Assembly (NCBI GenBank): GCA_045648885.1
Contig: JAZROV010000003.1
Location: 3,179-67,178 of the forward strand
Reading direction: 5' to 3'
Length of the DNA stretch: 64,000 nt
Source: Candidatus Enterousia sp.
Lineage (GTDB): Bacteria; Pseudomonadota; Alphaproteobacteria; Rs-D84
The notes under the pieces were generated by a model, which saw only the letters and a program-made list of their open reading frames with translations, was not told where the DNA came from and did no database searches. Of the stretch, positions 58,313 to 60,914 are shown one piece after another (positions within the stretch are counted from its first letter, which is position 1; every line of letters begins with the position of its first letter). The position numbers were made by a program, and so were the translations under genes.

Positions 58313-58533
58313 GAAAATCTCCTGCCTATTGTTGCACACAAACAACGCCAGATTTCTGACATGATTTGCGAACAATTCCTTCACTTAAAGAAAATTATAA
58401 CATTTTTAGACGAATGTGTAAATAACAAAAATCGTATTTTATATATAAAAACAACTTTATTTTATTAGACATAAAAACAAAAAAATTTGTAGTATTATTT
58501 TAAAGAAACATACTTTTATGAACAAAGGTGGAT

Positions 58534-59091
58534 ATGATGAAAAAAATTTTAATTTCTTTGATTGCTTTGACGCTGACGCTGCCTGCCGTTGCAGAAACAA
58601 ACATTATGTTTGGTGATAAAATAAATTCAATGACTTTTTACGCAGCCCAAGGCGTAGGTTCTGGCTCTTTATTAAAAGTTGTTCAACCTGGGCTGTGGGA
58701 TTTTAATCCACAAACATTTGTTATGCTGCAATACAGTCAACCTATTCAATTCTTTCGTCTGGATTCACGTTTGAATTTGAATGTCGGGCAAAATTTTGCC
58801 TATAATTCCAGCCAGGGTCTTTATTTCATGGGCATCGGGATTTCAGTAGATACCGCTTTGTTGCAATATAATGATTGGTATATGGGAATCGGTATTGGGC
58901 CATTTATGCGCGAAAGACGCGATCGTTGGGTCGAAAGTCGTCTGGTATTTGGCGAAAAAGTTTTTATCGGAAAAAATATTTCAGAAAATTGGCATATTGA
59001 ATTATTTACTATACATTTTTCAAATGGCAATTTCACCACGAAAAACGAAGGATTTAATTTCGCAGGTCTGGGTTTTGGGTATAAATTCTGA
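58534..59091 (+). CDS. Outer-membrane acyloxyacyl hydrolase / lipid A 3-O-deacylase (PagL)-like protein
   Basis: Signal peptide, a small beta-barrel-like alternating pattern, the HFSNG motif near the C-terminus and a terminal aromatic residue (GYKF). Confidence 0.55.
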   Translation: MMKKILISLIALTLTLPAVAETNIMFGDKINSMTFYAAQGVGSGSLLKVVQPGLWDFNPQTFVMLQYSQPIQFFRLDSRLNLNVGQNFAYNSSQGLYFMGIGISVDTALLQYNDWYMGIGIGPFMRERRDRWVESRLVFGEKVFIGKNISENWHIELFTIHFSNGNFTTKNEGFNFAGLGFGYKF

Positions 59092-59093
59092 CG

Positions 59094-59270
59094 ATTTAAG
59101 AAATCATACCTGTGGAACAAATATATAAAAAAACACATAATATAAACGTTCACATTTCGACAGCCCCATAAAAAAAACAAACAAACGGGTAAATGTGAAC
59201 AACAAGGTGCCCCTTAACGTGGTTGGTGGCATCAAAGGCCCCTGTCTTTTGACGGGGGTTTCGTGTTTTT
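59094..59270 (+). ncRNA. Candidate sRNA unit 1 (promoter-like box to intrinsic terminator)
   Basis: The 24-mer ATTTAAGAAATCATACCTGTGGAA, then ACACATAAT 39 nt after the unit start, a GC-rich body, and terminator CCCCTGTC-TTTT-GACGGGG plus GTTTCGTGTTTTT (59239..59270). Confidence 0.4.
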
Positions 59271-59283
59271 ACCCCCAACAATT

Positions 59284-59500
59284 ATTTAAGAAATCATACC
59301 TGTGGAAAACACATTAAAAATAACACATAATCATATTGTCTATGATACACGGCAACCCCAAAGAATTTATTTCGACGGCGGGTTGAGGCATAGACCATCA
59401 ATGCCCCATTCACCGTGGTTCGGGGCGTTGAAAACAAGACCCCGCGTCACCATATCCGCGACGAAAGTCAACGACACATGGTGGGCGGGGTTTTTATTTT
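59284..59500 (+). ncRNA. Candidate sRNA unit 2 (tandem paralogue of unit 1)
   Basis: The same 24-mer at 59284..59307 and ACACATAAT at the same 39 nt offset. GC-rich body with GGCAT/ATGCC and CCCC/GGGG stems. Long terminal hairpin CCCCGC..CACCAT/ATGGTG.GCGGGG plus TTTTTATTTT. Confidence 0.4.
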
Positions 59501-59516
59501 ATATTTTTTCTCGTGA

Positions 59517-59918
59517 TTAACAACCGCGATTACATGTACGTCTTACGCGAGTATATGTACCCGATGGAACATATCTGATAACCGGTTTGTATTGTTGAAC
59601 AGTTTCACGAACAAAATATTCACGACGAACAACCGCTTCAACATCACGTGGTTGATATACGCGCGCTTCATATGTATCAACATATGCTGGTGCAACATTA
59701 TAAACCTGGGTTTGAGTTGTTGTTTGGGTTGTTTGTGTTTCGTCTGCCATTTCGCATTCAACAACAGTAATAACTGTGCGATTGTCGGCTGCCGCTTCGT
59801 CCAGCACCGCACGCATGTGCGATTCATCACAATTTGAAACAGACATTTTGTAATAATCGGCCATCGCAGATACAGATGCCAAAGCAGCAACAAAAGAAAC
59901 CAGAACAATTTTTTTCAT
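59517..59918 (-). CDS. Small secreted protein (133 aa)
   Basis: Signal peptide MKKIVLVSFVAALASVSAMA from ATG 59918. Thr/Gln-rich linker. C-terminal CNRGC. Confidence 0.55.
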   Translation of the reverse strand: MKKIVLVSFVAALASVSAMADYYKMSVSNCDESHMRAVLDEAAADNRTVITVVECEMADETQTTQTTTQTQVYNVAPAYVDTYEARVYQPRDVEAVVRREYFVRETVQQYKPVIRYVPSGTYTRVRRTCNRGC

Positions 59919-60059
59919 GTTTTTAACTCTTTTTGTTTTGTTCTCTCTGCCTCTTAACGGCAATTTTATAATATATTTTTTTGTCTGCAAGAAAAAAACT
60001 TAATGGTTGACAAAATAAATAAACGTATTATATTTATATAAAAGAAAAAAAAGGAAACC

Positions 60060-60914
60060 ATGTTGAAAGACAAAATAAATGAAATTCAACAAATTATAAA
60101 ATACAATCCGTATCGCGAATACGTTGGGGAATGGTCACCAAAAAAAATCCAAAACATATATCGTGAAATTTACGAAAATCCTTTTCGCCCATGGGTTTTT
60201 GTTTCTGTTGGTGGATTGTCGATAAAAATGGTTATTGATGCAATATGGAACGAAATGTCATATAACCCATTGCGTTTTGGCATTCAAAACCCATTTGCAA
60301 AAAACGACATTCAATCTGTCAGACAATTTTGTAAAAAATATGATGACCATAACCCTGAAACCAAAGACATTATGTCAAACATTGCACATAAATTATCATC
60401 ATTTTTGTATTTCATAGGAAAATCAAATCCTGAATTTAATACAAACGAAAAAATCAATGGTTCCAGCATACTGATAAAATGCAATTACAATCGCAAACCA
60501 AACGATGGATATATTGCTTTGTCGTGTTTGGTTGGCGCAATACATTTAATTGCATCTCAAAATTTAAAAGATTATAAAATCAAAGCGTTCCGCAAACAAA
60601 TCAACGAGATTGCCATGTCACGTCATCCAAACCTGCAACGCTCTAGACAATATCTGAATTTTATAAACATGGCCAGAATTGGTGAAAAGAAAGATTCTTT
60701 GTATGACAATATAATGAAAAAAACAAACGAAATATCAGAAACCCAGACACGCATACAAACACTGAACGATTATGATCCGCCCGTTGACACATCAGACGAA
60801 TACAGACAATTGGCACGTCAACAATCTGAATTACAAAGTCTGGAAGAACAATATGAAAATGTAAAAATAAAATATGATAAAATGGTCGTGCAACAAAACG
60901 GTATTGAAAAATAA
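60060..60914 (+). CDS. Hypothetical protein (284 aa) with a C-terminal coiled coil
   Basis: RBS AAGGAAA. Intact ORF followed by hairpin ACGCC-TGTC-GGCGT plus a T-run at about 60915..60940. Confidence 0.6.
   Translation: MLKDKINEIQQIIKYNPYREYVGEWSPKKIQNIYREIYENPFRPWVFVSVGGLSIKMVIDAIWNEMSYNPLRFGIQNPFAKNDIQSVRQFCKKYDDHNPETKDIMSNIAHKLSSFLYFIGKSNPEFNTNEKINGSSILIKCNYNRKPNDGYIALSCLVGAIHLIASQNLKDYKIKAFRKQINEIAMSRHPNLQRSRQYLNFINMARIGEKKDSLYDNIMKKTNEISETQTRIQTLNDYDPPVDTSDEYRQLARQQSELQSLEEQYENVKIKYDKMVVQQNGIEK

Follow-up and report, generated by a model that had tools for sequence, protein, structure and literature searches.

Candidatus Enterousia is an uncultured alphaproteobacterium that is abundant in gut and rumen, and to our knowledge next to nothing has been learned about its gene regulation. 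We analyzed a stretch of 64,000 nucleotides (nt), referred to as the window, from Candidatus Enterousia sp. (assembly GCA_045648885.1, contig JAZROV010000003.1, positions 3,179 to 67,178), in which a reading of the sequence alone had pointed to two adjacent units resembling genes for small RNAs (sRNAs). Both lie on the + strand, unit 1 at 59094-59270 and unit 2 at 59284-59500. Comparison with related genomes supports the view that the locus holds two paralogous noncoding RNA (ncRNA) genes and that each of them has a separate promoter and terminator. Unit 2 represents an RNA family that is restricted to the genus, not contained in Rfam, and previously undescribed. Together with its sibling copy it is a new member of a general kind that is already known, the tandem bacterial sRNA genes. 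Candidatus Enterousia belongs to the order Rs-D84 and has genomes smaller than 1 Mb (PMC12306168); the host genome of the two units comprises 835,793 bp with 39% G+C and is 94.5% complete.

The two units and their neighborhood

Each unit is composed of a promoter region, a body, and an intrinsic terminator. The following features were assigned to the units and to the adjoining sequence.

59094-59115, + strand: promoter box of unit 1, ATTTAAGAAATCATACCTGTGG (genus consensus TTTAAGAAWWCRTACCTGTGG)
59136-59141, + strand: -10 hexamer of unit 1, CATAAT, 20 nt after the box (...CCTGTGG)
59236-59261, + strand: intrinsic terminator of unit 1, 11-bp stem, with a T run to ~59270
59284-59305, + strand: promoter box of unit 2, same sequence as the box of unit 1
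59326-59331, + strand: -10 hexamer of unit 2, CATAAT, 20 nt after the box
59440-59500, + strand: P3, terminator of unit 2, in which CCCCGC (59440-59445) pairs with GCGGGG (59485-59490), followed by TTTTTATTTT
58528-59091, + strand: upstream gene, PagL-like lipid A 3-O-deacylase/outer-membrane protein (Pfam PF09411, E = 8.8e-12)
59517-59990, - strand: downstream convergent gene, small secreted protein with signal peptide and no known family
59302-59520, + strand: spurious 72-amino acid (aa) open reading frame (ORF), starting inside the promoter box

Both units begin with the 24-mer ATTTAAGAAATCATACCTGTGGAA, whose only copies in the window are those at 59094 and 59284 on the + strand (0.00 expected by chance), as the sequence-only reading had noted. 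Allowing up to three mismatches revealed no additional copy in the window, and none was found elsewhere in the 835,793-bp genome. The -10-like element ACACATAAT was likewise confirmed 39 nt into each unit, with CATAAT at 59136 and 59326, and from its position transcription is predicted to start at ~59147-59149 in unit 1 and at ~59337-59339 in unit 2. The first 48 nt of the two units are identical at 42 of 48 positions, whereas the bodies share only 72 of 141 aligned columns (~51%), with 49 gap columns; the bodies have thus indeed diverged more than the promoters. With 47% (unit 1) and 54% (unit 2), the G+C content of the bodies exceeds the 39% of the genome. The block CGTGGTT.G.GGC, described as common to both bodies, is found at 59219-59231 in unit 1 and at 59414-59426 in unit 2, where it forms the 3′ part of the loop and the 3′ strand of a homologous hairpin, P2. 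The C4/G4 runs are present as well. They had been taken for free C-rich loops suited to target pairing, an idea that is not supported, since the runs mostly constitute the two strands of helices.

The intrinsic terminators proposed on the + strand are both recognizable, with stems and T runs that extend to ~59270 and 59500. The P3 stem of unit 2 holds an internal sub-hairpin, and a simple scan missed this terminator because its loop is long. The predicted transcripts accordingly measure ~120 nt for unit 1 and ~160 nt for unit 2.

The stop codon of the PagL-like gene lies 2 nt before the box of unit 1, and there is no terminator in between. Relatives of this gene are found in metagenome-assembled genomes from rumen and gut that are labelled Alphaproteobacteria or Candidatus Enterousia. 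Directly next to P3 is the stop codon of the convergent gene, so that P3 may serve this gene as a terminator, too; on the + strand, the next ORF after unit 2 begins at 60060. The 72-aa ORF had been judged spurious, and the orthologous loci agree: it is open in 1 of 51 of them, the frame stops elsewhere after 3-43 codons, its start codon is not conserved, and Pfam gave no match to it.

Neither unit could be assigned to a known family, just as the sequence-only reading had matched them to none. Rfam 15 (4227 families) yielded only rRNA and tRNA matches in the window, and cmscan of 58900-59700 with E values up to 10 returned nothing above 21 bits. No match to alphaproteobacterial sRNA families was obtained by cmscan at E values up to 10, and the orthologues and other units sharing the box gave only sub-threshold matches driven by the terminators. 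A known repeat or mobile element had also been considered; the element is not a dispersed repeat or mobile element, being found at one locus per genome and in conserved synteny.

Fold and distribution of the unit 2 RNA and its paralogue

The first orthologues of unit 2 came from BLAST and protein-anchored synteny and were single-copy. A covariance model built from two sequences and a hand-drawn structure (R1) found one match each in 38 of 299 genomes of the family. The rebuilt model (R2) was run on 328 genomes of the order and found one match each in 45, all of which, like those found with R1, belong to Candidatus Enterousia; they make up about 1 in 6 genomes of the genus, so that the proposed check for conservation in relatives turned out positive. 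Thirty further metagenome contigs with the unit 2 RNA were collected with a degenerate pattern. The final alignment contains 61 sequences, 48 of them distinct, and with the calibrated model defines the family well enough for a database entry and for annotation. In the host, the RNA folds as follows.

59336-59436, + strand: structured core of unit 2 (model R2, 95.5 bits)
59338-59344 / 59389-59395, + strand: helix P1a
59348-59352 / 59413-59417, + strand: pseudoknot, CACGG / CCGUG
59353-59358 / 59380-59385, + strand: helix P1b
59363-59365 / 59371-59373, + strand: helix P1c
59399-59407 / 59422-59430, + strand: helix P2

Covariation argues strongly for this fold. Among the 48 distinct sequences, standard pairs occupy 97.3% of the cells versus 82.9% in shuffles, and 18 of the 26 pairs show changes on both sides. 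The covariation score amounts to 0.414, compared with 0.165 in shuffles (0 of 500 reach the observed value) and 0.03-0.08 when the partners are slid. P1a provides clear examples of compensation (GUCUAUG/CAUAGAC, GUUCAG/CUGAAC, and GUCUGAU/AUCAGAC), and compensatory changes are found in P1b, P1c, and P2, too. The pseudoknot comprises 5 bp, formed between CACRG in the 5′ internal loop of P1 and CYGUG in the loop of P2. At its pair 21-97, 34 sequences have G-C, 13 have A-U, and none is unpaired. A second pair changes from C-G to U-A in one lineage (ACAUGG/CCAUGU). Since the search model did not include the pseudoknot, the signal from it is independent of the fitting of the alignment. The conserved nucleotides of the core are mostly located in helices or in the pseudoknot. 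Exceptions to the common fold are a short hairpin that takes the place of P1b and P1c in some species, and an outlying variant (L021/L120, G301) that keeps P1 and P2 and has no clear pseudoknot.

The order PagL-like gene, RNA, and convergent secreted-protein gene is kept at most orthologous loci. Some loci have additional genes between pagL and the RNA, yet there too the box accompanies the RNA, and several loci lack the convergent gene or have it at a distance. Wherever the upstream sequence of an orthologue is long enough, the box is found 45-47 nt ahead of the core, and almost all orthologues have the -10 element 13-17 nt before ACAC. The terminator directly follows an A-rich linker, and a hairpin with a U run occupies the position of P3 in every unit 2 orthologue. 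In many species P3 is extended to a conserved sub-domain of ~55 nt (...CCCCGUAAUUACGCGUGG...) with the palindrome CGUAAUUACG (L009 1640-1725, L010, L018, L019, and L021), which itself shows compensation from CCC/GGG to UUU/AAA (L088 and L115). The orthologous RNAs are predicted to be ~120-135 nt long, or 155-175 nt with a long P3. The metagenome-derived species with the outlying variant (L021 3290-3375) carries a second G+C-rich element, TTCCCCTCCCGCGGAGGGGG...GTGGGGAGGG with a T run, between the RNA and the convergent gene.

Unit 1 shares the second hairpin with unit 2 and differs from it in the 5′ domain.

59148-59200, + strand: P1′ hairpin, GUUCACAUUU/AAAUGUGAAC (minimum free energy fold, z = -3.2)
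59206-59233, + strand: P2′ hairpin, GGUGCC/GGCAUC with loop CCUUAACGUGGUUGGU, homologous to P2 of unit 2

P1′ has an inner CCC/GGG closure and an A-rich loop of ~20 nt. The hairpin covaries in seven related sequences (e.g. GUCCGUACC/GGUACGG and GUUUACAU/AUGUAAAC), in which it always encloses CCC and GGG separated by an A-rich segment of ~17-20 nt. G317, G288, G133, and several metagenome contigs carry a homologue of unit 1 ~190 nt ahead of their unit 2 orthologue. The tandem arrangement exists at eight loci in all, each with one box 229-249 nt and a second box 45-46 nt before the core. In two of the homologues (L154 and L148) the loop of the second hairpin is ACCGUGGUU, the same as in P2 of unit 2. 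This motif is altered to AACGUGGUU in unit 1 of the host and gone in G317, G133, and L149. Possible pairings between the 5′ tail of unit 1 and the P2′ loop (AUCGUU/AACGAU in G317), which would amount to a pseudoknot in unit 1, were seen by eye in few sequences and overlap P1′. The shared promoter, the P2 block, and the tandem position indicate that unit 1 derives from a duplication of unit 2 in which the promoter and P2 were retained, the pseudoknot partner was lost, and a new 5′ domain was acquired. Orthologues, synteny, and covariation, all at the level of sequence, thereby bear out the suggestion of tandem duplicated sRNA-like units.

The promoter box

At the position of a -35 hexamer only the TGG of the box is found, and conservation reaches up to about -52. 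We therefore read the box as most likely an activator site or a specificity element that is joined to a -10 element of the sigma-70 type. It shows no evident resemblance to the sigma-32, sigma-54, extracytoplasmic function (ECF)/EcfG, or CtrA consensus sequences. The host genome encodes only two proteins of the sigma-70 family, an RpoD-like protein and one of ~300 aa (C14 ~12902, - strand; C12 ~29212, - strand).

To survey the use of the box, twenty matches were sampled in other species of the genus. The arrangement of box, 19-20 nt, and -10 element was found in front of members of the unit 2 family, of at least three other ORF-less units ending in a terminator, and of protein genes, the latter carrying normal Shine-Dalgarno (SD) sequences. 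Because it precedes other units and protein genes as well, the box looks like a regulatory module that is shared within the genus, and one unusual promoter module would thus serve several different sRNAs. Many of the box matches with two mismatches fall into coding sequence, such as CAGAACGCATACATGTGG within aspS.

The sampled matches include several distinct genes. One ORF-less unit ending in a terminator has the conserved core GAUGUUUAAGGCAAGGAAUUCUUUUCUUUCGUCAUUUG (L068, L072-74, and L078); it is absent from the host genome by BLAST and has no match in Rfam. Another ORF-less unit behind the same box and -10 element contains GAACCCACAUCCCU followed by a terminator (L067 and L069). A hairpin-rich unit of ~120 nt lies behind the same elements upstream of a gene for a Cys-rich secreted protein (L070). 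Among protein genes, box and -10 element precede a conserved 116-aa protein of unknown family (MHDYI..., L075/76/80/85), a small membrane protein (L081) and, in a sister genus (L083), a periplasmic protein of the BOF/YgiW type with an oligonucleotide/oligosaccharide-binding (OB) fold (PF04076, E = 2.2e-23).

Possible modes of action

We consider it reasonably likely that the two units are tandem paralogous ncRNA genes under control of the box, and that their products are trans-acting riboregulators independent of Hfq. Each gene would be transcribed from its own promoter of the sigma-70 type, in which the ~20-nt box (TTTAAGAAWWCRTACCTGTGG), located 19-20 nt upstream of CATAAT, replaces the normal -35 element, and each transcript would end at its own intrinsic terminator. 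Unit 2 would be the ancestral gene, folding into P1a-P1b-P1c, P2, the 5-bp pseudoknot, the A-rich linker, and P3, and unit 1 would have arisen from it by duplication in one subclade, gaining a 5′ hairpin with an A-rich loop. As related species have the same box in front of unrelated sRNA-like units and of a few protein genes, both RNAs are probably co-induced and belong to one regulon. Both RNAs would act in trans and without Hfq, and unit 2 would most likely bind a protein, a ligand, or an RNA by means of either its folded core or the P2 loop. Few unpaired nucleotides are invariant and the P2 loop is engaged in the pseudoknot, which makes action through the folded core more probable than classical seed pairing.

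Hfq could not be detected in the host genome. When all six-frame ORFs with 40 aa or more were searched with Escherichia coli Hfq (phmmer), nothing matched at E values up to 1, and a motif scan of the genome was negative. A homologue of CsrA was not found by phmmer in the host genome either. Hfq is probably absent from this genome, given at 94.5% completeness, and the repertoire of regulatory proteins looks minimal. A reduced and apparently Hfq-less genome thus keeps a covarying pseudoknotted RNA and its duplicated sibling, and the RNA family and the promoter module together point to a regulatory circuit centered on RNA.

Several observations weigh against this interpretation. The covariation counts of the nested helices rest on an alignment that was fitted to the model. 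Only 3 of 50 unpaired positions of the core are conserved to at least 97%, and a classical seed is not evident. When the whole RNAs were compared with 1164 putative start regions by RNAduplex, meaningless full-length duplexes resulted. The host genome has the box solely at units 1 and 2, and the idea of a regulon therefore rests on other species. Lastly, unit 1 scores only 8.2 bits with model R2, so that its status as a paralogue is argued from the promoter, the P2 block, and the tandem context.

Known systems offer partial parallels. At the level of sequence, both units possess what characterizes tandem sibling sRNA genes, i.e. a promoter and a terminator of their own and homology to each other. 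PrrF1 and PrrF2 of Pseudomonas aeruginosa are tandem, Fur-controlled sRNAs that are >90% identical and act by Hfq-dependent seed pairing. Like units 1 and 2, they are close duplicates on the same strand with a copied regulated promoter and their own intrinsic terminators. In contrast, the bodies of units 1 and 2 are ~51% identical, Hfq was not found, and unit 2 is pseudoknotted; the sequences of both units neither resemble PrrF nor match Rfam. AbcR1 and AbcR2 (alpha-r15, Rhizobiales), the pair named in the sequence-only reading, are tandem alphaproteobacterial paralogues, each with its own promoter and terminator as in our case. The AbcR RNAs depend on Hfq and pair via exposed loop motifs, and the host of units 1 and 2 belongs to another order (Rs-D84) and has a genome of 0.84 Mb. 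In the enterobacterial OmrA and OmrB, adjacent paralogues whose promoters are better conserved than the middle of the RNA, one regulator binds both promoters, and the two RNAs have a common 5′ seed. Units 1 and 2, on the other hand, have the promoter and the second hairpin in common and differ in the 5′ domain. Unit 2 is also reminiscent of the orphan motifs of the Breaker/Weinberg type, which are contained in Rfam, defined by covariation only, pseudoknotted, and of narrow range in uncultured gut and rumen bacteria; however, it is a free-standing gene with promoter and terminator instead of a 5′ leader, and lies outside Rfam 15.

A more specific version of the proposal is that unit 2 founds a new class of trans-acting structured RNAs, free-standing and aptamer-like or protein-binding, with a pseudoknotted core by which a partner is sensed or sequestered. 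It would be one arm of a hitherto unrecognized TTTAAGAAWWCRTACCTGTGG regulon that consists largely of sRNAs and operates in an Hfq-less genome of 0.85 Mb, with unit 1 as a decoy or competitor that kept only the P2 arm. We put this forward tentatively, as a possibility that is at present rather unlikely.

It is unlikely, to a slightly greater degree, that the units are classical sibling sRNAs that repress or activate mRNAs, for example those of envelope genes such as pagL, by seed pairing through the A-rich loop of unit 1 or through the P2 loop (ACCGUGGUU). Their architecture and tandem duplication are those of known sibling sRNAs, they adjoin an outer-membrane gene, and the P2 loop motif is kept in copies of unit 1 that lack the pseudoknot partner, which hints at a role beyond folding. 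However, this motif is mutated in unit 1 of the host itself (AACGUGG) and lost in G317, G133, and L149, and all members of the unit 2 family have the P2 loop engaged in the pseudoknot. The attributes of an Hfq-dependent sRNA are also missing, as Hfq was not found in the host genome, conserved single-stranded positions are few and form no conserved seed, and the RNAduplex scan of start regions provided no target.

Alternatively, unit 2 could be a riboswitch-like sensor, in which a ligand controls P3 and read-through produces an antisense RNA to the gene at 59517-59990. The compact pseudoknotted fold is aptamer-like, the conserved nucleotides cluster around the pseudoknot, and at most loci the convergent gene follows immediately. 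Moreover, pairing is possible between the G-rich 3′ strand of P2 and the C-rich 5′ strand of P3 (about -7.4 kcal/mol). These two strands show no co-evolution, however: pairing within the same locus (mean -7.43 kcal/mol) is no better than pairing across loci (mean -7.63 kcal/mol; permutation p = 0.89). A cis-acting riboswitch or leader would further call for a downstream gene on the same strand, which is present neither here nor in the orthologues. What follows unit 1 is another RNA gene instead of a regulated gene, the convergent gene is absent or distant at several loci, and no riboswitch of Rfam matches. We thus regard a sensor of this kind as improbable.

Even less probable is that the conserved sequence is no separate RNA gene, and instead an element of the pagL 3′ untranslated region and/or a bidirectional terminator of the two convergent genes. 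The missing terminator between the pagL stop codon and unit 1 would fit such an element, as would the position of P3 against the convergent stop codon, where it could end transcription on both strands. Yet the box and the -10 element keep a fixed distance to the core even where genes separate pagL from the RNA, and they behave like a promoter in preceding SD-bearing protein genes. Termination, moreover, needs neither P1 and P2 nor a covarying pseudoknot.

That the RNA is a disguised housekeeping RNA, signal recognition particle (SRP) RNA or 6S RNA, which the Rfam models miss in an AT-rich reduced genome is hardly credible: RF00169 and RF00013 do find nothing in the host genome, but no more than 45 of the 328 genomes of the order, or ~1 in 6 species of the genus, carry the family, the three successive hairpins and the pseudoknot offer no closing stem for a 6S rod, the GGAA/AGCA motif of helix 8 is lacking, and SRP RNA is not expected in a genus from which Ffh and FtsY appear absent.

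This absence seems to extend to the whole pathway. PF00448, which covers the SRP54-type GTPases Ffh and FtsY, had no match in the host and 24 other Enterousia genomes, versus 15 of 16 genomes from sister families, nearly always with two matches. A wider survey covered 208 genomes of the family with a completeness of 90% or more; the 17 positive ones all belong to other genera, and none of ~185 Enterousia species representatives is among them. SRP RNA (RF00169) was likewise found in 0 of 25 Enterousia genomes versus 13 of 16 in the sister families, and the host genome contains neither a canonical helix-8 motif (GGAAGCAGC-like) nor a P-loop ORF resembling Ffh or FtsY. Ffh, FtsY, and SRP RNA therefore appear to be absent from the entire genus, a loss that is not mentioned in the published description of Enterousia genomes (PMC12306168) and may be of wider interest than the RNA family itself.

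Identity of the units with tRNA or transfer-messenger RNA (tmRNA) was rejected, the tmRNA being encoded elsewhere in the genome. ARAGORN places it at C1 20332-20662 on the - strand as a permuted two-piece tmRNA with the tag peptide AANDNVRLAMAA, and predicts 42 tRNA genes in the host genome.

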